Virus record (IMG/VR): IMGVR_UViG_3300045988_156067
Origin: a virus
Reading direction: 5' to 3' (one strand)
Length of the DNA: 35,026 nucleotides
This document shows positions 459-34,612 of this stretch, one piece after another. Each line of letters opens with the position of its first letter. The first letter of the stretch is position 1. Both the position numbers and the translations under genes were made by a program. The notes beneath the pieces were generated by a model, which saw nothing but the letters and a program-made list of their open reading frames with translations, did no database searches and had not been told where the DNA came from.

Positions 459-980
459 TTACAAATCATCCGGCACACGTGGCAGGTTCGCAATTCGTTC
501 TCGCTCTGCCTGCGTCATCTCTTCGGTATGCGGCGGTTCTCCGCCACGGGCTGCGACTTTTACCGTATAAACCATAGATTCTTTTAGATTGATTGGCTGG
601 TCTGCTTGATGGTTTTCTACAATCTTCTGCACAAATCGGTCAATCACCTGCTTGTCGTTTTCTTCTAAGCCGATATACGTTTCCAGGACCTTTCGGGCGG
701 TATCACTCAGCTTGTACTGCTTAACCAGCTGGTCAATTACAGATAACGCATTTGCATCATACATTTCGCCCGTTCCATGTTCCAACCATTCCCGGTTGAT
801 GCCGTATTCTTTGCAAATGATACCTATAATCAGTGGTTTTTCTGCAGCATTCGTTTCATTTCTGTCCCAGTTTCTCACAACATGACCAGATACTCCGATT
901 TTTGCACCAAATGCGTCACGAGACAAATGCAAACTCTTTCGCAACTCTAATATTCTTGCGTTTACACTCATTTCGTCCAT
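459..980 (-). CDS. immR: XRE/Cro-C1-family HTH repressor (ImmR-like, no S24 autocleavage domain)
   Basis: 173-aa track ORF. The N-terminal HTH reads ARILELRKSLHLSRDAFGAKIGVSGHVVRNWDRNE. An AGGAGGTGA SD sits at 993..985. The gene is divergent from the early operon and followed by immA. Confidence 0.85.
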   Translation of the reverse strand: MDEMSVNARILELRKSLHLSRDAFGAKIGVSGHVVRNWDRNETNAAEKPLIIGIICKEYGINREWLEHGTGEMYDANALSVIDQLVKQYKLSDTARKVLETYIGLEENDKQVIDRFVQKIVENHQADQPINLKESMVYTVKVAARGGEPPHTEEMTQAERERIANLPRVPDDL

Positions 981-2695: not shown

Positions 2696-3427
2696 ATGGA
2701 CGAACTCATTAAAGTCAACTACGAGAACGTAGACCGCCCGACCGTATCGGGTCGGGAACTGTGGGAGGCTCTGGAAGTGAAAACCGATTACCCACATTGG
2801 TTTGAGCGGATGACAGAGTACGGATTTTCAGAAGAAAAAGACTATCAGACATTTTTGTCCGATAGGGTTGATGGCAAAGCAGGTAAGCCACGCACTGACC
2901 ACCAAATCACCATCCCCATGGCGAAAGAGTTGTGTATGCTCCAGCGAACCGAAAAGGGAAAGTTCTGGCGGCAGTATTTCATCAACGTCGAAGAGAAGTG
3001 GAACAGCCCCGAAGCCATCATGGCAAGAGCGTTGCAGCTGTCGAACGTAAAGATGAAGCAGCTGGAAACGACCGTCAACGACCTGCAAAAGCAGATGGAG
3101 CAGGACAAGCCAAAGGTCTTATTTGCCGACAGCGTGACCGCATCGAGCAGCAGCATCCTGATTGGTGAGCTTGCAAAGCTGATTAAGCAAAACGGCGTGG
3201 ACATCGGGCAACGGCGGTTGTTTGAGTGGATGCGGGTAAATGGCTATCTGATTAAGCGGAAAGGTTCTGAATACAATCTACCGACGCAACGAAGCATGGA
3301 ACAGGGCTTAATGGAAATCAAAGAAACCAGCGTGGTACATACTGGGTACACAACCATCAGTAAGACACCGAAAGTTACCGGAAAAGGACAGGTTTACTTC
3401 ATCAATCTGTTTCTGGGACAGGCTTGA
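2696..3427 (+). CDS. Phage antirepressor with an AntA/AntB N-terminal domain and a KilAC (ANT) C-terminal domain
   Basis: The N-terminus VSGRELWEALEVKTDYPHWFERMTEYGFSEEKDY matches the AntA pattern. The C-terminus LFEWMRVNGYLIKRKG..NLPTQRSMEQGLMEIKE....TPKVTGKGQVYF matches the KilAC pattern. Confidence 0.88.
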   Translation: MDELIKVNYENVDRPTVSGRELWEALEVKTDYPHWFERMTEYGFSEEKDYQTFLSDRVDGKAGKPRTDHQITIPMAKELCMLQRTEKGKFWRQYFINVEEKWNSPEAIMARALQLSNVKMKQLETTVNDLQKQMEQDKPKVLFADSVTASSSSILIGELAKLIKQNGVDIGQRRLFEWMRVNGYLIKRKGSEYNLPTQRSMEQGLMEIKETSVVHTGYTTISKTPKVTGKGQVYFINLFLGQA

Positions 3428-3441
3428 AAGGGGGTGACTTT

Positions 3442-3561
3442 ATGAAAGAACTGGAACTGATTGCTTATTGCTTGTCTTTGATGAGCGAAGAAGACTACAA
3501 TCTGATGCTGGCGTTTATGGCTGGTGCAACATTCAAGCGGCTGGAAACAGCGAACAAGTAA
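3442..3561 (+). CDS. Very small hypothetical ORF (39 aa)
   Basis: My own translation MKELELIAYCLSLMSEEDYNLMLAFMAGATFKRLETANK, preceded by an AAGGGGGTGA SD. Confidence 0.35.
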   Translation: MKELELIAYCLSLMSEEDYNLMLAFMAGATFKRLETANK

Positions 3562-3573
3562 GGAGGAAATGGC

Positions 3574-3732
3574 ATGGAAAAGCCGATGAAAGCAAGCGTT
3601 GTGCCTGCAAAGGAGCAGGCAGACCGTTCGGTCTATGAAGCACTGGCGATGATGATTGTGGAGTTCTACAAACGGAATCCGGAGTTCGTAGAACATCCAG
3701 AACGGATGGCAGAGCATGAGCCGGAAAGTTGA
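3574..3732 (+). CDS. Small hypothetical protein (52 aa)
   Basis: My own translation MEKPMKASVVPAKEQ.... AGGAGG at 3562..3567 lies 6 nt from the ATG. Confidence 0.5.
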   Translation: MEKPMKASVVPAKEQADRSVYEALAMMIVEFYKRNPEFVEHPERMAEHEPES

Positions 3733-3931
3733 GTATCGGAACGGGTTCAAATACATGTACTGCGAGCAGTGTGACTTGGATTTTAACGTTCCGATTCAGA
3801 AAACAGGTTTTTTCATCTGTCCATGGTGCGAGATGAAGAACCGAAAGAAGGAAAAGGAGTGTGAAGCTAATGGCGAAACCTGTCGTTCGGAGCGTCCGTG
3901 TGAATCCGGAAATGCAGTTCACAACGGATGA
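3716..3931 (+). CDS. Small zinc-ribbon protein (CxxC...CxxC)
   Basis: CEQCDLDFNVPIQKTGFFICPWC. The start overlaps the previous stop. The C-terminal tail overlaps the next ORF. Confidence 0.5.
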   Translation: MSRKVEYRNGFKYMYCEQCDLDFNVPIQKTGFFICPWCEMKNRKKEKECEANGETCRSERPCESGNAVHNG

Positions 3932-4097
3932 CTTGCTACGGATGCTCTTCGGCGTGAATGCTTGCGGATTTGCAGACAAGGTTCGGAATGATACTTCTGG
4001 GGAGTATGATTTTCTCCTGGAAGATGATAGAGAGGAGCGAAAAGATGGGAAAAATCGTTATCAAGACAAACCCGAAGGGCGATACAGTCGGCATTGA
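3870..4097 (+). CDS. Hypothetical protein
   Basis: Internal ATG of track ORF 3861..4097, with an AAGGAG SD about 11 nt upstream. Confidence 0.45.
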   Translation: MAKPVVRSVRVNPEMQFTTDDLLRMLFGVNACGFADKVRNDTSGEYDFLLEDDREERKDGKNRYQDKPEGRYSRH

Positions 4098-4287
4098 GGT
4101 GAGAGGTTTTGAAGAAATTGATGCTGCTATAATGACCATTTGTGCATTTGTCAAAATCATAAGCGGGCTCAATCGAGAGAGTAAAAAGAGTGCCTTTTAT
4201 GCAGCTGGCATCATTCTTAAAAGCATTGCAGACAAGGTGGACTCTGAACCAGAGGAGGAACGGGAAAATGGGAACAACAGCGATTGA
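4045..4287 (+). CDS. Hypothetical protein (80 aa)
   Basis: Internal ATG of track ORF 3958..4287, preceded by GAGAGGAGCGAAAAG. Confidence 0.5.
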   Translation: MGKIVIKTNPKGDTVGIEVRGFEEIDAAIMTICAFVKIISGLNRESKKSAFYAAGIILKSIADKVDSEPEEERENGNNSD

Positions 4288-4480
4288 ACCCGGTAAAGGA
4301 AGCTGGCGTGTTGAGGAACTGGAGAACATGGATTCTTTACAAGCTGCCAAAATATCGCTTGCAATGTTTGCAGGCACAACAATGGCTCTTGCTAAGCAAG
4401 GAAGATGTGTAGAATGTGCGATTGTGATGGACGCAGCACGCCAGATTTTGGACAAATTAAGCAAGGATGTGAGCAAATGA
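4268..4480 (+). CDS. Hypothetical protein (70 aa)
   Basis: Internal ATG of track ORF 4190..4480, preceded by a GAGGAGGA SD. Confidence 0.5.
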   Translation: MGTTAIEPGKGSWRVEELENMDSLQAAKISLAMFAGTTMALAKQGRCVECAIVMDAARQILDKLSKDVSK

Positions 4481-4806
4481 CCCCAGAAGAACAACGGCAG
4501 AAGAAGAACCAAGAATTGCTGGAAAGCTACAACTGGTATAAAGCCCACCATGTTTGTGTGCGATGCCGTAACGCTTCCGCAACGGACGGGTTTGTCACTT
4601 GCCCGAAATGCCGGGAAGCAATCAACGCAGGGCATCGCTTCTGGTACGCTGCATTAACGTCCGAGCAGAAGAAGAAAGGACAGGCGAAAACAAAAGCCAT
4701 TCGGGCTAAGTGGCGAGCAGACGGGCTTTGCACCCGATGTGGCAGAGAGCGAGAAGACAAGCAGTTTTTAACATGCAGGCGATGCAGGAAAGGAAAGCAC
4801 AAATGA
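4477..4806 (+). CDS. Tandem zinc-ribbon protein, paralogue of the gene at 9812..10330
   Basis: ATGA start/stop overlap with the previous gene. Two CxxC-x(9-12)-CxxC units flank a basic helix: WYKAHHVCVRC...CPKC...SEQKKK...CTRCG...CRRC. Confidence 0.6.
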   Translation: MTPEEQRQKKNQELLESYNWYKAHHVCVRCRNASATDGFVTCPKCREAINAGHRFWYAALTSEQKKKGQAKTKAIRAKWRADGLCTRCGREREDKQFLTCRRCRKGKHK

Positions 4807-5105
4807 CTAAATTTAAGGTTGGAAAAACCTACAGCATTAAAAACGAAATCGGAAAAAGCTGGTTTAAGTCTTATGAGATTGTGGCAAGAACCGCTTGTAC
4901 GCTTACCCTAAAAGACGAGAGTGGCAAAATCATCAGATGCAGAATCAGCAAAAAGTTTTCCGCTTTTAACAAGGCAGAAACAGCTTTTCCGGAAGGTATT
5001 CGTTCTGGAAACTATCCAATCAGAGCAGACATGCCGTATCAAACGTTTAGCTTTAAGCCAGTGGCGGAAGCGATAAGCGAGATACTTTTTAAAAGGATGG
5101 GGTGA
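4803..5105 (+). CDS. Hypothetical protein (100 aa)
   Basis: ATGA overlap with the previous gene. I recognise no family. Confidence 0.55.
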   Translation: MTKFKVGKTYSIKNEIGKSWFKSYEIVARTACTLTLKDESGKIIRCRISKKFSAFNKAETAFPEGIRSGNYPIRADMPYQTFSFKPVAEAISEILFKRMG

Positions 5106-11242: not shown

Positions 11243-11653
11243 ATGAGGATGACTTTAGAAACATTACAGCAATGCCGTAACGCTGCACATGCACTACAGA
11301 AAGCACAGAAAGCAATTAACATGCATGAATCTGGTGCCGGCTGCATTAGCGGTATGCACTACGGTGACATGCCAAGAGGGCGAGGCGAGCCAATTTCTTC
11401 CCAAGAAGCCTACGTAGAGAAGAAGGAACGTCTGGAAGAAGAACTGAATCAGAAAAAGACAATGTATCAGAATCTGAAATGTGAAGTCTTGCATGCAGTA
11501 TCCAGCCTGACAAGGTTACAACGGCAATTGATTTGCGGATACTATGTGCATGGGCACTCCTGGGATACTGTCAACAGAATCTGTGGAGTAAAGCGGCAGC
11601 AGTCCATCTATCAAGTTCGAAAAGCCTTTGATAAAATTTTGGAAAGGGCTTGA
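11243..11653 (+). CDS. Late-gene regulator candidate with a sigma-70 region-4-like HTH (ArpU/RinA/DUF1492-type position)
   Basis: The C-terminus LTRLQRQLICGYYVHGHSWDTVNRICGVKRQQSIYQVRKAFDKI resembles sigma region 4. It is the last gene before terS. The ATG at 11249 is better spaced from the AAGGAG SD. Confidence 0.6.
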   Translation: MRMTLETLQQCRNAAHALQKAQKAINMHESGAGCISGMHYGDMPRGRGEPISSQEAYVEKKERLEEELNQKKTMYQNLKCEVLHAVSSLTRLQRQLICGYYVHGHSWDTVNRICGVKRQQSIYQVRKAFDKILERA

Positions 11654-11678
11654 CATTCAACATCGTTTGTGCTATAAT
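11650..11678 (+). promoter_or_regulatory. Consensus promoter TTGACA-17 bp-TGcTATAAT upstream of the packaging genes
   Basis: TTGACA at 11650..11655 overlaps the regulator stop codon. TATAAT is at 11673..11678 and a TG at 11670..11671. Confidence 0.7.
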
Positions 11679-11754: not shown

Positions 11755-12240
11755 TTGGCAAATGAAGAAAACCTGATTCCGATGGACGAACGAACAGAGA
11801 ACGAACAAAGAGAAATTGCAAGAAAAGGTGGCAAAAAGTCCGGAGAAGCACGCCGCAGAAAAAAAGACATGAAAGCCAAAATGAAGTTGCTGCTTTCCCT
11901 GCAGCCGACCGCCAGCCAAACAGAATTGTTGAAAGCACTTGGCATTCCGGAAGAGGACGCAGATAATGAAATGCTGCTGCTGGTTGCCATGTTTCAGGCT
12001 GCCACGGAAGACCGAGATACCAAAGCATTTGATAAGGTCATGGACGTACTTGGAAAGACCGTACAACGGGAAGAACTGACCTTGAAAAAGCGGCAGGCGG
12101 CGAAGCAAGACAAGCCGAGCAACGGCATGACGGAACAGCTGATTGCAGGAATGCAGGAACAGGGGGCGGAAGATGATTTACACGAAGAAGCAGCGGCAAT
12201 TGATGGAACTGTGGCGAACAAAGAAGTTGCAGCGGATTAA
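11755..12240 (+). CDS. terS: Terminase small subunit (TTG start)
   Basis: It lies immediately upstream of, and overlapping, terL. The N-terminus is NLIPMDERTENEQREIARKGGKKSGEARRRKK. A GGAGGGAGGA SD lies 2 nt before the TTG at 11755. No in-frame ATG alternative exists near the SD. Confidence 0.7.
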   Translation: MANEENLIPMDERTENEQREIARKGGKKSGEARRRKKDMKAKMKLLLSLQPTASQTELLKALGIPEEDADNEMLLLVAMFQAATEDRDTKAFDKVMDVLGKTVQREELTLKKRQAAKQDKPSNGMTEQLIAGMQEQGAEDDLHEEAAAIDGTVANKEVAAD

Positions 12241-13390: not shown

Positions 13391-14728
13391 ATGATGTATC
13401 GGCGACCTTTTTACTACATCCAGTCCCCTGATGAACCAATGACCATCGAAAAGCTGCAATACTGGTTACAGCAACACACAGTGGACTGCAAACGGCTGCA
13501 ATATCTGAAAGATTTGTACGAGGGACGGCATCCCATTCAGCTGCAGCCAAAGAAAGAACCGTGGAAGCCGGACAACCGCATTATCTGCAACTTTGCAAAA
13601 TACATTGTCGATACCTTCAACGGCTATTTTATCGGGATTCCTGTCAAAACCATGCACCCAGATGCAGCCGTTGCAGAAACATTGGAAGCCATTCAGCAGT
13701 ACAACGACCAAGACGACAACAACTATGAACTTGCAAAATATTGCAGCATTTACGGGAACGGGTTTGAATTGCTTTACACAGACGAAACCGCCCACATTTG
13801 CACAACCTATCTTTCCCCGCTGGAATGCTTTGTTGTCTATGATGATTCCGTTGCAAGAAAACCTTTGTACGGGGTGCGATACTGCCGGGCAACGGATAAC
13901 ATCCTGATGGGCAGTGTTTACAGCCAAACGGAAGAAATTCCGTTCTCAGATGCGGGGGACGGACTGCGGTTTGATGACCCGAAGCCGCATTACTTCGGCG
14001 GCGTTCCGCTGATTGAATATATTGAAAATGAAGAGCGGCAGGGAACATTTGAACAGGTGGAAAGTGCTATCACGGCGTATGAAAAGGCAATCTCAGAAAA
14101 AGCCAACGATGTGGATTACTTTGCGGATGCGTATTTGCTGCTGATGGGGCTGCAGGTGGACGAAGAAAATCTGCATACCATTCGCAGCGACCGTGTGATT
14201 CACGTGCCGCCGATGGATGCGGACGATATAAACGCCATTCGGGTCGAATTCCTGCAAAAGCCTGCCGCGGACGCTACGCAGGAAAACTTGCTGAACCGGC
14301 TGGAAGACCAGATTTTTGCACAGTCCATGGTTGCAAATATTTCGGATGAATCCTTCGGCAGCAGTTCCGGCACGGCGTTGGCGTACAAACTACAGCCGAT
14401 GAAAAACCAAGCAGCTGCAAAAAGCCGAAAGTTTGCCAGTGCCATGAATCAGCGTTGGCGACTGATTGCCGCCCATCCAGCCAGCAAACTGGCGACTGAT
14501 GACTGGATGCAAATTACTTACCGCTTTACGCAAAACGCCCCGAAGAACCTGCTGGAGGAAGCCCAGACTGCTGCACAGATGGCAGGGATCACATCCAAGG
14601 AAACACAGCTTTCTGTCATTTCTGCGGTGGATGACCCACAGACAGAACTGGAGAAAATCGACTTGGAGAACGGCGGTGAGGCGGCGGATGCGTTACAGGC
14701 GGAGCGGGTGACAGGCGATGCAGAGTGA
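13391..14728 (+). CDS. Portal protein (SPP1 gp6-like)
   Basis: 445 aa, positioned after terL. YLKDLYEGRHPI...PDNRIICNFAKYIVDTFNGYFIGIPV fits the SPP1-type portal pattern. Confidence 0.9.
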   Translation: MMYRRPFYYIQSPDEPMTIEKLQYWLQQHTVDCKRLQYLKDLYEGRHPIQLQPKKEPWKPDNRIICNFAKYIVDTFNGYFIGIPVKTMHPDAAVAETLEAIQQYNDQDDNNYELAKYCSIYGNGFELLYTDETAHICTTYLSPLECFVVYDDSVARKPLYGVRYCRATDNILMGSVYSQTEEIPFSDAGDGLRFDDPKPHYFGGVPLIEYIENEERQGTFEQVESAITAYEKAISEKANDVDYFADAYLLLMGLQVDEENLHTIRSDRVIHVPPMDADDINAIRVEFLQKPAADATQENLLNRLEDQIFAQSMVANISDESFGSSSGTALAYKLQPMKNQAAAKSRKFASAMNQRWRLIAAHPASKLATDDWMQITYRFTQNAPKNLLEEAQTAAQMAGITSKETQLSVISAVDDPQTELEKIDLENGGEAADALQAERVTGDAE

Positions 14729-16034
14729 TACCTACTGGAGCAAGCGGCTGCAAGAATTGGATGCCTCTTTAAGCAAAGACGAAAAGCAGCTCTTCTCGGA
14801 GTTATCAAAATACTATGAACAGGAATATGCAGCACTGGACAAAGAAATCGCAGCGTACTATGCAAAATATGGTGAAGAGAATGTGATTGCCTTCCGAACA
14901 TTGCTGCTAGAATTACCGGATGCAGACAAGCAACTGCTGCTGCAAAACATGGATGAATTTGCAAAGCAATATCCAGAGTTTGCCGAACTGCTCCCTGTTC
15001 GGGAAAGCATTTACAAACTGAACCGCTTGGAAGGCTTACAAACTTCCAGCGTGTTGCAGCAGTTGAAAATCGGAGCGATTGAGCAAACGAAATTTCGAGA
15101 ACACTTTGAGAAACAGGTGTTGAAATATGCAAACTATGCAGCGGAGAAGTTGGGATTCGGGACGAATTTTTACCGGATTGATAGCGAGATGCTGCAAGTT
15201 GTGATTGGAAATCCTTGGTGTAATGGCAAAGATTTTTCTGAACGGATTTGGGCAAACCGAGAAGCCTTAGCACAGACTTTACAAAACGAGATTGCAAACG
15301 GTCTGATTCGTGGTGAAGATTATAGGACCATGTCAAGAATCTTGCAGCAGAAGTTTGAAAATACATCGCAGAAGCAAGCAGAACGGCTGGTTTTTACAGA
15401 AGATACGTACTTATCCAATGAAGCGAAAATTCGACCATTTGAACGGAATGCAGCTTATACGCATTATGAATATCTCTGTGTAGAAGACCACCGCACCTGT
15501 GAAACTTGCCGTGCGTTGAGTGGACAGACATTTGAAATCAGCAAACGGAATGCCGGCTTGAATTTCCCACCGATGCACCCTTGGTGCAGATGTACCGTTA
15601 TGCCGGTGGTCGAGGATTTGGCGACGATAAAGAGGCGGTTGAACGCCGATTCTGGAAGTGGAAAATCAGATGCAATTTTATTGACAGATACGCAGAAAGA
15701 TGGTATAATAAAAACAGATGAAAGATTTGAGATTCATCCAGATAAAATAAAAAAGTTTTTGTTGAAACCAGGTGCGAAGCATTCAAAAGAATTTTTTGAT
15801 GTTGGCTATACACCTGATGATTATGAGTTGCTTTTCGATGACATCGCATTGAATTTCAATATGGAAACAGCTTTTGCACGCATAGAAAAGCCAGATGGTT
15901 CTATTGATTTTTGTATGTATATGGATTTGGGAGTAACAAAAAAGAGAAATTTTAAAGTAGTTTGGAAAAAAGATAATTCAGAAAGTAAGCCACGATTGAT
16001 TACAGCTCATCGAGAAGGGAAAAAACATGTTTGA
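14718..16034 (+). CDS. MuF/SPP1 gp7-family head morphogenesis protein fused to an extra ~124-aa C-terminal domain (DUF6883-like by recollection)
   Basis: The MuF core signature is CVEDHRTCETCRALSGQTFE...NFPPMHPWCRCTVMPV, ending near 15610. A linker ADSGSGKS follows, then an AT-rich extension: HPDKIKKFLLKPGAKHSKEFFDVGYTPDDYELL...VVWKKDNSESKPRLITAHRE. Confidence 0.88.
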   Translation: MQSDTYWSKRLQELDASLSKDEKQLFSELSKYYEQEYAALDKEIAAYYAKYGEENVIAFRTLLLELPDADKQLLLQNMDEFAKQYPEFAELLPVRESIYKLNRLEGLQTSSVLQQLKIGAIEQTKFREHFEKQVLKYANYAAEKLGFGTNFYRIDSEMLQVVIGNPWCNGKDFSERIWANREALAQTLQNEIANGLIRGEDYRTMSRILQQKFENTSQKQAERLVFTEDTYLSNEAKIRPFERNAAYTHYEYLCVEDHRTCETCRALSGQTFEISKRNAGLNFPPMHPWCRCTVMPVVEDLATIKRRLNADSGSGKSDAILLTDTQKDGIIKTDERFEIHPDKIKKFLLKPGAKHSKEFFDVGYTPDDYELLFDDIALNFNMETAFARIEKPDGSIDFCMYMDLGVTKKRNFKVVWKKDNSESKPRLITAHREGKKHV

Positions 16035-16230
16035 ATTATTTGAAAAAGTTTTAATAAAAGAAAAGAATATTCCTGGCACAATTGTGGACATTACAACGAT
16101 AAAAGGTAAGAAAATAATTACAGTTGAAAGTGATATAGAAGGAAAACAAGAAGGCGGTTATGGCGAGCGTTTTCCTTTGTTTACATGCTATGAAAATCAA
16201 CTGCAACGCTTAACCACAAACAAGAAGTAA
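16027..16230 (+). CDS. Small protein translationally coupled to the MuF C-terminal domain (DUF4926-like SH3-type fold by recollection); candidate immunity/partner protein
   Basis: 67 aa, MFELFEKVLIKEKNIPGTIVDITTIKGKKIITVESD.... Its ATG lies 8 nt before the MuF stop. It has the same very low G+C as the MuF extension. Confidence 0.7.
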   Translation: MFELFEKVLIKEKNIPGTIVDITTIKGKKIITVESDIEGKQEGGYGERFPLFTCYENQLQRLTTNKK

Positions 16231-16247: not shown

Positions 16248-16601
16248 ATGGCGAAAGATGATATGGAAATTATCATGTACAAAATTCTCAAATATCTATA
16301 TGAGTGCCTGAAATCCGGAAGAAAAACATCGATTGCAGATGTTGCATGGGAATGTCGCCTGTTCCATATTACAAGAACATACTGGCTTGTAATTATGCGA
16401 GAATTGATTGAATCCGGATATGTTTCTGGCATTCAGTACATTGCCGCAAAGGATATGGAACAGATTTTAGAAGTCGGTACGTTTTCAATTACGAAAGCAG
16501 GCAGAGAATATTTGTCCCAAAACAGCATGATGCAGAAAGCAAAGGAATTTCTTGGGAAACCATTTGAGATTCTTCTTGGTGCTGTAATTGGAAGACTATA
16601 A
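16248..16601 (+). CDS. YjcQ-like winged-helix protein
   Basis: IIMYKILKYLYE...LIESGYVSGI...ITKAGREYLSQNS resembles the Bacillus prophage YjcQ family layout. A TGAGGTGA SD is present. Confidence 0.6.
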   Translation: MAKDDMEIIMYKILKYLYECLKSGRKTSIADVAWECRLFHITRTYWLVIMRELIESGYVSGIQYIAAKDMEQILEVGTFSITKAGREYLSQNSMMQKAKEFLGKPFEILLGAVIGRL

Positions 16602-16638
16602 GAACAGAATATTTACAAAAAAGAATCATTTTTATAAA

Positions 16639-16662
16639 AGCATCTCTCTGAGGTGCTTTTTT
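16639..16662 (+). terminator. Intrinsic terminator (7-bp stem, T6 run); copy 1 of the repeated terminator cassette
   Basis: AGCATCT-ctctg-AGGTGCT followed by TTTTT. The sequence aggtgcttttttcatgcccgaaa recurs at 17055..17077 with one mismatch. Confidence 0.65.
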
Positions 16663-16683
16663 CATGCCCGAAAGGAGAAAAAT

Positions 16684-16947
16684 ATGGAAACAAGCAAACC
16701 AGCAGAATTGAAAGATACAGTAAGTATGATGGGCAGCACAGACTATAAGGAACGCTTTAAGGCGGAGTATATACAGGTGGCTATCCGGTATCGAAAGCTG
16801 AAATGCATGCTTGCCAGATGGGACAAGGGAAAGCTAAACTTTTATCCAACTTGCCCGAGAAGCATTTATGATTTGCAGATTAGAGCGATGGCAGACTATA
16901 TCACCGCTCTGGAAGCCCGTGCAGCAATCGAAAATATCATACTTTAA
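16684..16947 (+). CDS. Conserved small phage protein of unknown function (87 aa)
   Basis: Internal ATG of track ORF 16588, with an AAAGGAGAAAAAT SD. ERFKAEYIQVAIRYRKLKCMLARWDKGKLNF.P.CP...L..Q...M..Y...LE.RA is a pattern I recall from many Firmicutes/crAss-like phage hypotheticals. Confidence 0.65.
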   Translation: METSKPAELKDTVSMMGSTDYKERFKAEYIQVAIRYRKLKCMLARWDKGKLNFYPTCPRSIYDLQIRAMADYITALEARAAIENIIL

Positions 16948-17039
16948 TCACCGCCCCGACCATGGGCAAAAACTGGCGGAGGGACGGAAACCAAGAACAA
17001 ACAAGCCTGTGGGTACGGCGTTCTTTCTATCAACAAATC

Positions 17040-17066
17040 AGCATCTGAGCAATCAGGTGCTTTTTT
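17040..17066 (+). terminator. Intrinsic terminator (9-bp stem, GCAA tetraloop, T6 run); copy 2 of the repeated cassette
   Basis: AGCATCTGA-gcaa-TCAGGTGCT followed by TTTTT. Confidence 0.7.
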
Positions 17067-17095
17067 CATACCCGAAAACAGAAAGGAGCAATCTT

Positions 17096-17365
17096 ATGCA
17101 GCTTCTCTTTTTTCATGCGAACTACTGCCCGCCCTGCAAGCAAATGCAGCCGGTGGCAGAGCAATATGCAGCCCAGACCGGCATTCCGTTGTACACCTTC
17201 CGATCAGATGATGTGTACGGCGGAAATGCCATGGCACGGCAGCACCATGTGAAACGCCTTCCCTGCTTGATTCTTCTGGATGATGATGGCAGAGAACAGG
17301 CTAGAACCGAAGCCGTCCAAACGCTGGAAGGGTTGCGGAAGGTATTTGAAAGGAGTGAATCATAA
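17096..17365 (+). CDS. Thioredoxin-fold protein with a CPPC active site (89 aa)
   Basis: MQLLFFHANYCPPCKQMQPV...VKRLPCLILLDDDG shows a thioredoxin-like beta-alpha-beta start, a CxxC motif and a cis-Pro region. An AAAGGAG SD is present. Its stop overlaps the scaffold start (TAATG). Confidence 0.8.
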   Translation: MQLLFFHANYCPPCKQMQPVAEQYAAQTGIPLYTFRSDDVYGGNAMARQHHVKRLPCLILLDDDGREQARTEAVQTLEGLRKVFERSES

Positions 17366-33115: not shown

Positions 33116-34612
33116 TTATACTATTTTCTTTTTGCAAAAATAATGAAATGTTGTACATAAAATAGTTTGCCGGCTCCCGCAACCCGAAATATGTACGCCT
33201 ACTTCCAAATCACAATCACCGTTTGGATGGGCATATATTTTCACCATAGATTTGCAAATCTGCTTTGTATCTGTGTCTAACTGCTTAACTGCATTCTGAA
33301 AAAGTTGTTCCAGCTTCTCCACACTGACCGGCTTTTTCTCTTCTCCACGCCGAATAATATCTTCTAATTCCGATTTCCGCACACGCAGCCGAAACATTTC
33401 TTCTTGTAATTCTGGGTAGTCAATCCCCTTTAAAATCGCCTTTGTACCATTGTTCAGCTGAAAAATAATGTCTGCCAGTTCTTTTCGTTCTGCTTTAAGG
33501 TCAACAGATGCACCATTAATTTCATCTGCAACCTGCTGTGCCATTTGAGAAAAATCCAAATCAGATAGATATTGTTTCAAGTTCTGTACCACAAATACTT
33601 CCAATTCTTCTGCGTTCAGATTTTTCGCATAGCAGGTATGATTCCGGTACTTGTTCCCACAGCAATAATATCTGGTAGAATATCCCTTCTTATTTGTAGA
33701 CGTATGCCCAACATAATTTGCACCGCATTCTGTGCACTCAATCAATCCAGACAGTAAATAGCTGCGTTTTGCTTTGTTACAAGCACGCTGTTTTTTATCA
33801 TTCATTCGTATTTGCACCGCTTCCCATGTATCTTTATCAATAATCGCCGGTATACTGTCTTCAATCCGGACAGCGTTTTCATTCGGGATGTTTCCAGCAT
33901 ACTTCCCCATGATTTTATGATGATACTTGCACCAGCTATAAACACCAATATATCGTTCATTTCGCAGCAGATAGTGTAAACTATTCTTTCCGATAACCCT
34001 TCCACGTTTGCCACGTACTTCCCCAATCTCTGCTAAAATTTCGCCATAGCTCTTCCCTGCTGCATACATCCGATAAATTTTCTGAACAATCTCCGCTTCT
34101 GCTGGATTGATGACATATCTTCCATTCACAACATTATAGCCGAAATTTGGCGTACCGCCTAAGAATTGCCCGGTCTTCGCTTTAGTGGCAATGCTATCCA
34201 TAGATTTTTGGCGACTGGTCAACACATGATGCTGCCCCAACCCAACCGTGATTAATTCTGTTAAGTAATCAGAGGGGTTCAAAATATCCCCAATGCGGTC
34301 TTCCACGGATATTACTTGAATCCCTAAAATCGCCATTTGTTTCCGGAAGCCGAACCAGTCCGACACATCACGGCTTCCCCGGCTGATGTCGTAAATCACA
34401 ACGGCATCAAACTTTCGCTGTGCAGCATCTTTGCAGAGTTGTTGGAATGCTGGTCGCTGGGTATTCGTGCCGCTCTTGGCTTCGTCCGTGTACCGGGCTA
34501 TTACTGTGATACTGTGGTCATTGCAGTACTCCTCAATTTTCCGCATCTGGTAAGCAATACTGCTCTCTGTCTGATGCTCTGTGCTGTATCTTGCATATGC
34601 TGCTGCTTGCAT
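33116..34612 (-). CDS. int: Large serine recombinase (phage integrase)
   Basis: The resolvase-type N-terminus AAYARYSTEHQ..SI..Q carries the catalytic Ser. The recombinase domain includes YLLRNERYIGVY. A zinc ribbon reads LIECTECGANY...YYCCGNKYRNHTC. The C-terminal region is predicted to form a coiled coil. Confidence 0.95.
   Translation of the reverse strand: MQAAAYARYSTEHQTESSIAYQMRKIEEYCNDHSITVIARYTDEAKSGTNTQRPAFQQLCKDAAQRKFDAVVIYDISRGSRDVSDWFGFRKQMAILGIQVISVEDRIGDILNPSDYLTELITVGLGQHHVLTSRQKSMDSIATKAKTGQFLGGTPNFGYNVVNGRYVINPAEAEIVQKIYRMYAAGKSYGEILAEIGEVRGKRGRVIGKNSLHYLLRNERYIGVYSWCKYHHKIMGKYAGNIPNENAVRIEDSIPAIIDKDTWEAVQIRMNDKKQRACNKAKRSYLLSGLIECTECGANYVGHTSTNKKGYSTRYYCCGNKYRNHTCYAKNLNAEELEVFVVQNLKQYLSDLDFSQMAQQVADEINGASVDLKAERKELADIIFQLNNGTKAILKGIDYPELQEEMFRLRVRKSELEDIIRRGEEKKPVSVEKLEQLFQNAVKQLDTDTKQICKSMVKIYAHPNGDCDLEVGVHISGCGSRQTILCTTFHYFCKKKIV

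Follow-up and report, generated by a model that had tools for sequence, protein, structure and literature searches.

The MuF polymorphic toxins described by Jamet et al. (2017; PMC5576092) are encoded by temperate phages of Firmicutes, in which muF lies right after the portal gene. They have a variable C-terminal toxin domain followed by a small ORF (<150 aa) that is presumed to encode the immunity protein, and are abundant in the gut microbiome (PMC5576092). The characterised MuF toxin/immunity pairs are Apk2 and Bxa only, and their toxins are a (p)ppApp synthetase and an ADP-ribosyltransferase, with no RNase-type toxin between them (PMC12226406, PMC11699363). DUF6883 has been reclassified as a colicin-like BECR RNase, BECR-Tox3, an assignment that comes from a single preprint (bioRxiv 10.64898/2026.08.28.747851), where DUF6883 is already described as often fused to the C-terminus of Phage_Mu_F and as followed by a small, conserved partner. 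Phage polyvalent proteins, too, have BECR-fold domains linked to MuF-type head proteins, the PBECR domains, for which delivery and RNase activity are predicted (that preprint, citing Iyer et al. 2017).

The window, which is the whole 35,026-nucleotide stretch of viral DNA analysed here, belongs to a temperate siphovirus of gut Clostridia-type hosts, with lysogeny genes for a large serine recombinase (33116..34612, - strand), an antirepressor, and a CI-like HTH repressor with divergent promoters. The features by which Jamet et al. recognised MuF toxins are found in it, these being the MuF-superfamily domain (PF04233/PF06152-type), the post-portal position, the temperate phage, polymorphic C-termini with some shared toxin domains, and the small downstream ORF, although its DUF6883 cargo would in 2017 have been classed as an "extension without known domain". 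With BECR-Tox3 as described in the preprint it shares the toxin family, the predicted BECR grouping, the Phage_Mu_F fusion, and the presence of a small downstream partner. The locus has the following features.

14718..15647, + strand: MuF / SPP1 gp7-type core of the minor head protein, residues 1-310, which is the carrier and is conserved
15648..15716, + strand: linker/junction (…ADSGSGKSDAILLTDTQKDGII…), left edge of the exchangeable cassette, predicted to be disordered
15681..15709, + strand: predicted sigma-A/sigma-70 consensus promoter, TTGACA-17 nt-TATAAT, inside muF, a 12/12 match
15702..16034, + strand: C-terminal cargo of the DUF6883 / BECR-Tox3 type (MuF residues 329-438), a predicted RNase toxin
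16016..16020, + strand: Shine-Dalgarno sequence AAGGG of the partner gene, read from the sequence, inside the end of muF and 6 nt upstream of the ATG
16027..16230, + strand: 67-aa partner, the predicted cognate immunity protein, a predicted SH3-like five-stranded beta-barrel of an uncurated family
16248..16601, + strand: YjcQ-family gene (Pfam YjcQ, E 6e-17; GC 0.376), within the low-GC variable island
16681..16947, + strand: crAss001_48-related small gene (Pfam PF21825, E 1e-16), the last gene of the variable island
17040..17066, + strand: intrinsic-terminator-like hairpin (17040-17061) and T-run, from a terminator scan, at the right edge of the variable island

The MuF carrier and its C-terminal domain

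The muF ORF (14718..16034, + strand, 438 aa) lies directly 3' of the SPP1-type portal gene (13391..14728; Pfam SPP1_portal, E 1.5e-118) and starts 11 nt inside its end. The N-terminus had been predicted to be that of a MuF/gp7 protein, which is borne out by this position and by matches to Pfam Phage_Mu_F (PF04233; residues 186-295, E 8e-20), TIGR01641 phageSPP1_gp7 (E 3e-22), and the phrog_115 minor head protein (E 1e-79). The core ends with NFPPMHPWCRCTVMPV at 15608, after which come the linker ADSGSGKSD and about 124 more residues. In the AF2 model of this C-terminal domain (CTD), residues 1-14, at the junction, have a pLDDT below 50.

The extension had been likened to DUF6883-type proteins, and the searches agree. 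Against Pfam DUF6883 (PF21814, gathering threshold 27) the CTD alone scores 26.9 bits and full-length MuF 24.6 bits; close relatives of the CTD score 28–50 bits, and most of its 53 homologs are labelled PF21814. In hhalign, the toxin profile (A1) aligns with canonical DUF6883 proteins of Anabaena and Allocoleopsis at probabilities of 80% and 71% (E 1.5e-5 and 3.9e-5) over 87–97 columns. A match of the toxin profile to a SpoIID-domain protein (L026, 22.6 bits) was discounted as false. By its homology to canonical members the cargo is a distant but real member of DUF6883, with a Pfam score just short of the threshold, on a branch at about 27 bits to the Pfam model as against 57–65 bits for canonical members, which places such gut-phage domains at the edge of the current model and is a point for annotation.

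The AF2 model of the CTD (pLDDT 86) has helices followed by four antiparallel strands (H42-47, H55-65, E72-76, E82-90, E96-104, E112-118), with an extra N-terminal helix at 27-34; in MuF numbering the helices are H356-361 and H369-379. This topology, seen in the model only, is that given in the preprint for the colicin-like BECR fold: pre-alpha, alpha, and an antiparallel sheet of beta1 to beta4. The original prediction held that the cargo had no assigned biochemical function. That is out of date, given the placement of DUF6883 among the colicin-like BECR RNases in 2026, and the predicted fold fits that topology, so the activity of the cargo cannot be called unassigned. The novelty originally claimed was likewise overstated, as the RNase class, the Phage_Mu_F fusion, and the partner are all covered by the preprint.

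Within the clade of the window's CTD the invariant residues are K343, K354, H355, E358, D361, Y364, W416, R426, H431, and R432. Of these, K354-H355 lie to either side of the short helix, while the last strand bears R426, H431(Y), and R432. The domain is predicted to be a metal-independent, colicin-like BECR endoribonuclease, most likely a tRNase, whose likely active site would comprise K354-H355 at the "pre-alpha" helix and R426...H431-R432. The canonical cyanobacterial DUF6883 proteins share only K343, W416, and some hydrophobic positions with this clade. K354, H355, R426, H431, and R432 are not conserved in those that were compared, so that the catalytic assignment is valid for the window clade only, and could be wrong. 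The K-H/EFFDVGY/PR..HR signature is the clade's own, and is absent from canonical members.

Structure searches with the toxin model found no match in the PDB at E<=1e-3 with Foldseek. Among its weak matches were HigB2, RelE, and a Salmonella TA toxin (E 0.25–0.7, TM 0.35–0.52). Sequence and profile searches of the PDB with the CTD gave nothing usable, and no PBECR family of Pfam is listed for it at E<=1. Compared with the PBECR polyvalent proteins, the window's MuF is a simple two-domain fusion and not a giant polyvalent protein. The domain is fused in-frame to three capsid-internal carriers (Phage_Mu_F, Phage_min_cap2, and VG15), and similar domains are present on other viral minor capsid proteins.

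A low-GC cassette exchanged behind a conserved core

The CTD and the partner (15648-16230) have a GC content of 0.321, where the mean of the window is 0.453 (sd 0.039), and are the lowest-GC stretch in the 35 kb; only 0.3% of equal-length segments are as low, every one of them overlapping 15648-16230. GC3 is 0.22 in the CTD and 0.27 in the partner, against 0.48–0.58 in the flanking head genes. The hand counts of G+C on which a foreign origin had been proposed (32/60, 18/60, and 16/60) are exact on recount. The suggestion that the CTD and the next gene are one low-GC unit stands as far as the dip itself is concerned, but not for its right-hand limit, as the low-GC island runs past 16230 and through the YjcQ-like gene to about 16700.

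The MuF core is 95–100% identical in about 20 IMG/VR phages with differing tails. At least six unrelated C-terminal cargos are found on such cores at the same junction, giving MuF lengths of 411, 438, 446, 459, 474, and 477 aa, and each alternative cargo has its own abutting small downstream ORF. An Ntox50 domain is among them (59 bits), and more distant MuF relatives carry a DUF4258 cargo (25.6 bits, gathering threshold 25). The cargos are mutually unrelated (hhalign probability <2%), though this comparison, of the toxin profile with single alternative tails, is uninformative as to deep homology. Sister phages that carry other cargos lose their DNA homology to the window at 15642 (L039, L045, and L066) or at 15713-15716 (L027, L029, and L030). 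In the tightest cases homology stops between 15642 and 15716 and returns at 16190, in agreement with the proposal that the CTD and partner are a single exchangeable unit.

Could the extension instead be structural and native to this MuF lineage, its base composition having dipped by chance? There are many MuF proteins with C-terminal extensions that lack a known role, and a high-GC MuF clade (L067-L099) keeps a conserved 206-aa extension of native composition. In the window, however, the extension lies in the stretch of lowest GC, the closest annotated MuF relatives align over residues 1-300 only, six unrelated tails are seen on near-identical cores, and the domain occurs alone and on unrelated carriers. 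A native structural extension is contradicted by the alignments of the relatives, the polymorphism of the tails, and the homology breakpoints. It was rejected as highly improbable.

The YjcQ gene was considered as a further member of the cassette and rejected, since it stays put behind several different cargos in the sister phages. For the crAss001_48-related gene the probable start is the ATG at 16681, with an 87-aa version beginning METSKPAELKD in L027, L058, and L060. PADLOC found no defence-system match for any of the island genes.

The 67-aa partner as a putative immunity protein

The partner gene begins inside the end of muF, with an overlap of 8 nt from its ATG to the muF stop (ATGTTTGA); this overlap and the gene coordinates given in the original prediction check out on the sequence. 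Wherever the partner ATG was located in a DUF6883 module, a Shine-Dalgarno sequence stands before it. Clustered at 50% identity, the family comprises 83 representatives, and the partner is directly downstream of the toxin in all 18 of the genome loci that could be assessed. It is present at 9/9 MuF loci with a DUF6883 tail and at 0/71 with other tails. One ORF (P0051) reads through from toxin into partner. Elsewhere, the toxin and partner pair is found between TerS and TerL in another phage, and an orphan partner adjoins an 87%-identical copy of the post-MuF ORF of another sister phage, in an array of immunity-type genes.

The AF2 model of the partner (pLDDT 94) has its best PDB matches among CAP-Gly, KapB, chromo, and MutS2-SH3 barrels (TM 0.6–0.7), while sequence and profile searches of the PDB gave nothing usable. 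The partner had been likened to the small DUF4926-type proteins, an identification that is not upheld. Pfam gives no DUF4926 (PF16277) match to the window's 67-aa protein at E<=1, and only 5 of 73 members of the partner family have any match, all sub-threshold (best E 0.032). Ten further partners had none, and the PF16277 label is on 0/80 of the partner-profile matches. Two genuine DUF4926 proteins, run as positive controls, score 28.5 and 39 bits on Pfam. The hhalign probabilities of the partner profile (A3) against two PGAP-annotated DUF4926 proteins are 0.6% and 0.2%, the single-sequence targets limiting the sensitivity of this comparison. An SH3-like fold class common to the two families is possible, but the partner belongs to an uncurated SH3-like family that is not DUF4926. 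It should be annotated as an uncurated, putative immunity family and not given that label. In this the window clade differs from canonical BECR-Tox3, for which DUF6883-DUF4926 pairs were confirmed on two cyanobacterial plasmids.

The strict co-occurrence, the translational coupling, and the orphan in an immunity array fit the effector/immunity reading that was originally proposed, and the 67-aa protein would probably block the toxin through direct binding. A different role for the pair would have the CTD as an injected effector that promotes infection, for example an RNase or RNA-binding domain disabling a host defence or remodelling translation early in the infection, and not a growth-inhibiting toxin, with the partner as only its inhibitor or chaperone during assembly in the producing cell. 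Delivery of this kind has a basis in SPP1, where MuF/gp7 proteins exit the capsid together with the DNA. A possible influence of MuF toxins on the lysogeny decision has also been put forward (PMC5576092), and their biological role is called unknown in the literature. MuF-linked BECR domains are treated as phage effectors by Iyer et al. (2017, as relayed in bioRxiv 10.64898/2026.08.28.747851). Orphan partners, however, sit in immunity-type gene arrays remote from any toxin, which is a signature of protection against incoming toxins and not of an assembly chaperone, and the hyper-polymorphism of the cargo among near-identical phages is typical of antagonism and kin discrimination. An infection-promoting role is therefore considered unlikely, although it and the toxin model are not mutually exclusive.

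A predicted promoter at the junction and the proposed working of the module

The predicted promoter lies within the muF coding sequence at the left edge of the cassette, with an extended -10 TG at 15701-15702 and a predicted transcription start near 15716. There are four perfect sites of this kind in the 35 kb, against 0.00 expected from 100 shuffles, the rest being found either at the CI-like repressor switch or in front of the small terminase. The hexamers and their spacing are kept in 29 non-redundant junctions, and the element recurs, conserved in its DNA, with more than 10 cargos and on several carriers. It is absent from the canonical-type DUF6883 fusions L020 and L021, and so is not universal in the family.

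The conserved TTGACA-N17-TGnTATAAT might be kept for the peptide that it encodes (…LT…GII…), as a processing site like the VENN motif of CdiA, or purely as a recombination hotspot. In polymorphic toxins the variable C-terminus usually comes right after a peptide motif that is conserved, as Zhang et al. reportedly described in 2012, and homology between cassettes stops right after the TATAAT-bearing sequence. A peptide motif is hard to reconcile with the preservation of the -35 hexamer in two codon phases that give different peptides (L-T-D/S versus V/I-D/E-K/N), the spacer being 16 or 17 nt long, adjusted with the codon phase, and free in sequence. TATAAT survives amino-acid changes (SGII, SDII, NDII, SSIM, SAII), and the first Ile codon at the junction is ATA in 28 of 29 cases, compared with 16% ATA usage in the carriers. 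The other perfect matches in the genome are only at bona fide promoter positions, and a role in recombination is compatible with promoter function and no true alternative to it. That the element is something other than a promoter thus has a low probability.

At the other end of the island, the hairpin at 17040 is predicted to fold at -12.9 kcal/mol (z -4.07), with none of 200 shuffles as stable. It lies in a true intergenic gap, as the thioredoxin-like gene that follows starts at ATG 17096 after AAAGGAG, and homology to L029, L039, and L066 returns at 17040. Expression of the capsid genes would require that a terminator placed amid the head-gene operon be leaky or overcome by antitermination. 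There is no mention of an embedded junction promoter or a closing terminator in the MuF-toxin literature (the Jamet, Apk2, and Bxa papers). What appears to be new here is the putative sigma-A promoter inside muF at the cassette edge, conserved at the DNA level, together with the terminator-like hairpin that would close the island.

Internal promoters have precedents. In nuclease-colicin operons, a constitutive promoter for the immunity gene lies within the colicin gene itself. In Salmonella Rhs an internal promoter transcribes the CT/immunity region independently of delivery, and the toxin is made from a CTG start (PMC7043789). As in both of these, the window's predicted promoter is inside the structural gene of the toxin, upstream of the toxic C-terminal region, but here it is a perfect consensus at a recombination junction that travels with the cassette across carriers. 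Unlike in Rhs, the predicted internal transcript has no plausible toxin start: there is no in-frame ATG or GTG between the predicted transcription start and the KH motif. Phage morons, of the type described by Hendrix, are units of promoter, gene, and terminator of deviant composition, inserted into a late operon. The window's unit is like these in having its own predicted promoter and terminator-like hairpin, in its GC content (0.31–0.40 against 0.45–0.51), and in lying between head genes where it varies among otherwise near-identical phages. It differs in having its predicted promoter and first stretch of coding sequence joined in-frame to the structural gene upstream; one piece of DNA would thereby form both the 3' end of a late gene and the 5' leader of a unit that is putatively expressed in the lysogen.

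A predicted promoter of its own would also suit an intracellular toxin-antitoxin, addiction, or abortive-infection module serving the prophage, in which fusion to MuF was incidental and no delivery by the virion took place. The toxin and partner pair does stand alone as a two-gene unit in a Ruminiclostridium chromosome (L002, L003, L011), the canonical DUF6883-DUF4926 pairs are TA-like operons, one of them within a type I R-M operon, and Salmonella Rhs CT/immunity modules read from internal promoters act as TA systems (PMC7043789). Against this, no SD-led in-frame ATG or GTG for a free toxin follows the predicted transcription start, and the repeated in-frame fusion to the three capsid-internal carriers argues for selected attachment to a packaged protein. 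The stand-alone chromosomal copy keeps a remnant of the MuF-type N-terminal linker (P0011 compared with P0014), and so looks like an orphaned fragment. A purely intracellular role is considered improbable.

The locus is probably a MuF polymorphic toxin module, with a DUF6883/BECR-Tox3 RNase cargo, an SH3-like immunity protein, and an embedded promoter that would provide toxin-free immunity in lysogens. By analogy with gp7, the MuF core would be built into the capsid at the portal and leave it with the DNA, taking with it the exchangeable 110-residue domain on its disordered linker. The promoter in the linker codons would start a transcript at about 15716 that carries no usable toxin start, and on which the SD-led immunity gene would follow about 310 nt downstream, then the two accessory genes, up to the hairpin terminator. 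Such a transcript would have lysogens make the immunity protein constitutively without toxin, while in lytic growth read-through of the late operon would yield the MuF-toxin and the immunity protein together. The promoter-bearing junction would also be the sequence shared between phages for the exchange of cargos.

More tentatively, and with somewhat less than an even chance of being right, the cargos may be self-contained plug-in modules that put the promoter first, each opening with a sigma-A promoter in the codons of a disordered linker, so that one element of about 30 nt would have three roles. It would allow in-frame fusion to any capsid-internal carrier (MuF, min_cap2, or VG15), supply the shared homology by which unrelated toxin/immunity cassettes are swapped, and guarantee constitutive expression of immunity in lysogens.

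Gut prophages have MuF toxins in abundance, of which the two named above alone have been characterised. Modules of this type were known before; the present locus shows one in a clean and compact form, in which the cargo is a predicted RNase and the immunity family is a distinct one, and sister phages that differ only in the cassette are available as natural isogenic controls. Judged from the DNA, the consensus promoter with which the module begins, set within the coding sequence, should enable lysogens to produce the protector but not the toxin, and this conserved element suggests both how they stay immune and where cassettes recombine. If the cargos are indeed plug-in modules, MuF toxins would be a form of virion-borne kin discrimination, in which lysogens with the same cassette are immune and others are intoxicated, and this would be a concrete and testable answer to the question of what MuF toxins are for.

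The muF locus and its exchangeable cargo

The window is a complete temperate siphovirus. It has a CI-like HTH gene whose start is flanked by divergent promoters, an antirepressor and a large serine recombinase, together with genes for both terminase subunits (small and large), portal, MuF, DUF4355 scaffold, major capsid protein, tape measure, holin and endolysin. Relatives are found among viral contigs of gut metagenomes and in Ruminococcus, Oscillospiraceae and Clostridia MAGs. The genes of the locus are:

13391..14728, + strand, SPP1-type portal gene, directly 5' of muF
14718..16034, + strand, muF, 438 aa, starting inside the 3' end of the portal gene
16027..16230, + strand, partner ORF, 67 aa, its ATG overlapping the muF stop by 8 nt (ATGTTTGA)

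By profile matches (PF04233, E 8e-20; TIGR01641, E 3e-22; phrog_115, E 1e-79), residues 1–310 are a MuF/SPP1-gp7 minor head protein. The core ends with NFPPMHPWCRCTVMPV at 15608, as originally described, and an AAGGG Shine-Dalgarno can be read 6 nt 5' of the partner ATG. The three 60-nt G+C counts first made by hand were exact on recounting (32, 18 and 16). The C-terminal domain (CTD) and partner (15648–16230) form the lowest-GC stretch of the entire 35 kb (0.321 versus a window mean of 0.453, sd 0.039), with GC3 of 0.22–0.27 versus 0.48–0.58 in neighbouring head genes, and the low-GC island runs on beyond its originally proposed extent, to about 16700.

In a set of 50,697 annotated phage genomes, Streptococcus Javan prophages have the nearest MuF relatives (~40% identity), which align with residues 1–300 only, and the CTD is found in just one record. 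About 20 IMG/VR phages have a MuF core 95–100% identical to that of the window, carrying unrelated tails that give six ORF lengths (411, 438, 446, 459, 474 and 477 aa). Ntox50 is one such tail (59 bits), and a more distant MuF core carries a DUF4258 tail (25.6 bits versus a cutoff of 25); the remaining tails have no identified domain or are weakly zincin-like. Each tail type is paired with a small ORF of its own, which overlaps or abuts the muF stop; in hhalign comparisons, neither the tails nor the small ORFs show any relationship to one another (all <2% probability). Every tail in the window's clade has a lower GC than its core, whereas the extension in a high-GC MuF clade is native, conserved and 206 aa long.

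DNA homology between the window and its sister phages breaks at 15642 or at 15713–15716, and restarts at 16190 (L039, L045), ~16625–16650 (L027, L030) or 17040 (L029, L066). Since homology stops and resumes at these edges, the CTD and partner have been exchanged as a unit, which bears out their proposed acquisition as one. A near-constant core with exchangeable tails and small ORFs is what defines the MuF polymorphic toxin family (Jamet et al. 2017, PMC5576092), and the window locus behaves in this way. The architecture in the original prediction, a MuF core with a foreign CTD and an overlapping small ORF, is largely right, the coordinates, overlap and G+C counts all being confirmed.

In phages with the 411-aa MuF (L039, 2646–2860) there is no small ORF after muF, yet the final ~40 nt of the window partner gene (16190–16230) still have a homologous counterpart; judged from sequence, this remnant looks like the scar of a former DUF6883/partner cassette.

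The DUF6883 domain and its partner

On the Pfam DUF6883 model the CTD falls just short of the cutoff, at 26.9 bits versus 27. Its homologs at E≤1e-3 number 53, the majority already bearing the PF21814 label, and relatives from genome contigs reach scores of up to 50 bits. Two cyanobacterial DUF6883 proteins annotated by PGAP, which themselves score 57–65 bits on Pfam, align end-to-end with the CTD-family profile (hhalign 80% and 71% probability). The near-cutoff score, labelled homologs and end-to-end alignment together argue that the CTD is a real but peripheral DUF6883 member, which supports the family named in the original prediction.

DUF6883 has been renamed "BECR-Tox3" and placed in the colicin-like BECR RNase group in an August 2026 preprint, which defines the group by a pre-alpha + alpha + beta1–4 topology in which the pre-alpha element and beta4 carry a catalytic His and basic residues, and gives tRNAs as the usual targets of characterised members (bioRxiv 10.64898/2026.08.28.747851). 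The preprint further describes DUF6883 as often fused C-terminally to Phage_Mu_F and as having a conserved downstream partner, and its prediction of RNase activity means that the cargo is not, as had been stated, one with no assigned biochemical function. The AlphaFold2 model of the CTD (pLDDT 86 overall, >90 for residues 21–120) has helices at 27–34, 42–47 and 55–65 followed by four antiparallel strands, and this predicted fold matches the colicin-like BECR topology. In the model, clade-invariant residues lie at a short helix (K354-H355, KH) and on the final strand (R426, H431, R432); these are putative catalytic residues, located where the BECR definition predicts. The cyanobacterial DUF6883 proteins do not conserve them. 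Foldseek of the model against PDB gave no significant match (RelE/HigB2-type toxins at TM 0.35–0.52), and PDB sequence and profile searches were empty. The significant structural matches in BFVD are other viral "minor capsid proteins" and one metallopeptidase-labelled protein, each with a similar domain.

The 67-aa partner has no matches in Pfam, NCBIfam or PADLOC. Its family has 14 close homologs and 83 representatives at 50% identity, with no Pfam labels bar one unrelated match among 80 profile matches. It had been likened to DUF4926, an assignment that fails: per-member scans give only sub-threshold matches, to families of small beta-barrels (MSSS SH3 in 19/73, DUF4926 in 5/73, best E 0.032), and hhalign of the family against two genuine DUF4926 proteins gives <1% probability, while these controls score 28.5 and 39 bits on PF16277. 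The AF2 model (pLDDT 94) is a five-stranded SH3-like barrel, with CAP-Gly, KapB, chromo and MutS2-SH3 domains as best PDB matches (TM 0.6–0.7). Canonical DUF6883-DUF4926 pairs are present on cyanobacterial plasmids (L115, 1498–2072; L116, 1492–2147), and in Anabaena cylindrica such a pair separates the S-subunit gene of a type I restriction system from its R-subunit gene.

The partner family directly follows the toxin in 18/18 assessable genome loci, and follows 9/9 DUF6883-tailed MuF loci versus 0/71 loci with other tails; the gap is −8 to +11 nt in modules with both coordinates mapped. The pair is carried by Phage_Mu_F, Phage_min_cap2 and VG15 proteins and behind a DUF7211 N-terminal motif, as separate genes between TerS and TerL in another phage (L001), and stand-alone in a Ruminiclostridium chromosome. 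This gene-order evidence argues strongly for functional linkage of the two, the cargo being a predicted RNase toxin and the partner a predicted immunity protein.

Several loci show further arrangements. In L004 (3487–4219; also L005 and L006), an array of small genes with no toxin nearby lies between two serine recombinase genes, where a 72-aa homolog of the window partner adjoins a 94-aa gene that shares 87% identity with the ORF after muF in sister phage L029; from its sequence this would be an orphan immunity array, matching two cargos of the window's phage lineage. L001 has two toxin modules in one packaging region, DUF6883 with its partner and a portal protein with a C-terminal Ntox50 domain (3011–4944). 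The latter is followed by a 65-aa ORF ending …IKSIEILD, which resembles the small ORFs after the Ntox50-tailed MuF of L066 and the MuF of L055. In Firmicutes bacterium M10-2 (L020, 997–3285), a 762-aa MuF-DUF6883 fusion has an intein splicing domain (PF14890, E 4e-11) directly after the MuF domain and before the toxin domain. Short DUF6883 proteins (P0031, P0039, P0042, P0049, P0052) start with a DUF7211 motif (…WHHGVKGxKWGVRRTPEELG…) in place of MuF, which may be another carrier or targeting tag. P0051 (155 aa) has DUF6883 continuous with partner-family sequence in one ORF, as a natural fusion or a sequencing frameshift, and could be used as a single-chain proxy for co-folding.

A candidate promoter at the junction

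The window contains four perfect TTGACA-N16-18-TATAAT sites, versus 0 in 100 shuffles, each with a 17-nt spacer and extended −10 TG:

1005–1033, − strand, flanking the start of the CI-like HTH gene (459..980, −)
1068–1096, + strand, flanking the same start, divergent from 1005–1033
11650–11678, + strand, in the gap between a late-regulator-like gene (11243..11653) and small terminase (11755..12240)
15681–15709, + strand, candidate sigma-70-type promoter within muF (TTGACA, 17 nt, TGG TATAAT; 12/12 match)

The first three probably mark the lysogeny switch and the packaging/late operon. The fourth is exactly at the left edge of the cassette. Sister phages with different cargos share the junction sequence until 4–8 nt past the −10 box and diverge beyond it. 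Across cores of 55–100% identity and at least 10 cargo types, the junction reads TTGAC(A/T)-17-TGGTATAAT, with TAAAAT in one group; the sole exceptions are a truncated contig, another that ends soon after the junction and a third in which bases are masked. The sequence is absent from the high-GC clade with the native extension and from the canonical-type fusions L020 and L021, so it is not universal.

On other carriers, too, DUF6883 modules contain the element, in most loci 89–98 nt 5' of the KH codons (92–96 nt in the majority), with the −35 in a different codon phase (gTT GAC AAa, V-D-K, 16-nt spacer) from that of MuF junctions (TTG ACA, L-T, 17-nt spacer). In 29 non-redundant junctions TGnTATAAT is essentially invariant and the spacer variable, TATAAT being preserved by the peptide variants SGII, SDII, NDII, SSIM and SAII. 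The first Ile codon is ATA in 28/29 junctions; ATA makes up 16% of the carriers' Ile codons and 1/15 in the window's own MuF core. The retention of the −35 in two codon phases and of TATAAT across peptides, with this ATA bias, argues that the element is conserved at the DNA level and not the peptide level.

The predicted TSS is at about 15716. Between it and the KH motif there is no in-frame ATG or GTG, only TTG codons without a Shine-Dalgarno, and the partner ATG lies ~305–322 nt past it, preceded by a Shine-Dalgarno wherever it was located. A 10-codon out-of-frame ORF (15719–15751, MKDLRFIQIK*) has its ATG 10 nt past the −10 box, near the predicted TSS.

A proposed transcript unit and its significance

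The right edge of the variable island is marked by one further feature:

17040–17066, + strand, terminator-like hairpin with T-run (−12.9 kcal/mol, z −4.1)

A 165-aa ORF was mechanically called at 16868–17365, but it is probably an 89-aa thioredoxin-like gene with its ATG at 17096 after AAAGGAG, since sister phages encode exactly the 89-aa version; the hairpin would therefore lie in a true intergenic gap. The whole phage group keeps a thioredoxin-like gene in this place, between the muF and scaffold genes.

The proposed order is promoter, toxin CTD, immunity gene, YjcQ, crAss001_48-like gene and terminator. This order and the island edges would give the unit the anatomy of a phage moron, from which it differs in that its 5' end is fused in-frame into muF. 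The junction promoter would supply toxin-free immunity in lysogens, and the promoter-bearing junction would provide homology for cassette exchange. Nuclease-colicin genes contain constitutive immunity-gene promoters, a precedent for a promoter within muF. Another is found in Salmonella rhs genes, where internal promoters occur (PMC7043789). In the MuF literature covered by the analysis, no such junction promoter is mentioned.

The novelty claimed in the original prediction was overstated, as the class of MuF toxins was already established in 2017 (Jamet et al. 2017, PMC5576092), and the association of DUF6883, MuF and partner, with the predicted RNase activity, was published in 2026. The parts that appear worth following up are the distinct candidate immunity family and the predicted junction promoter, conserved at the DNA level.
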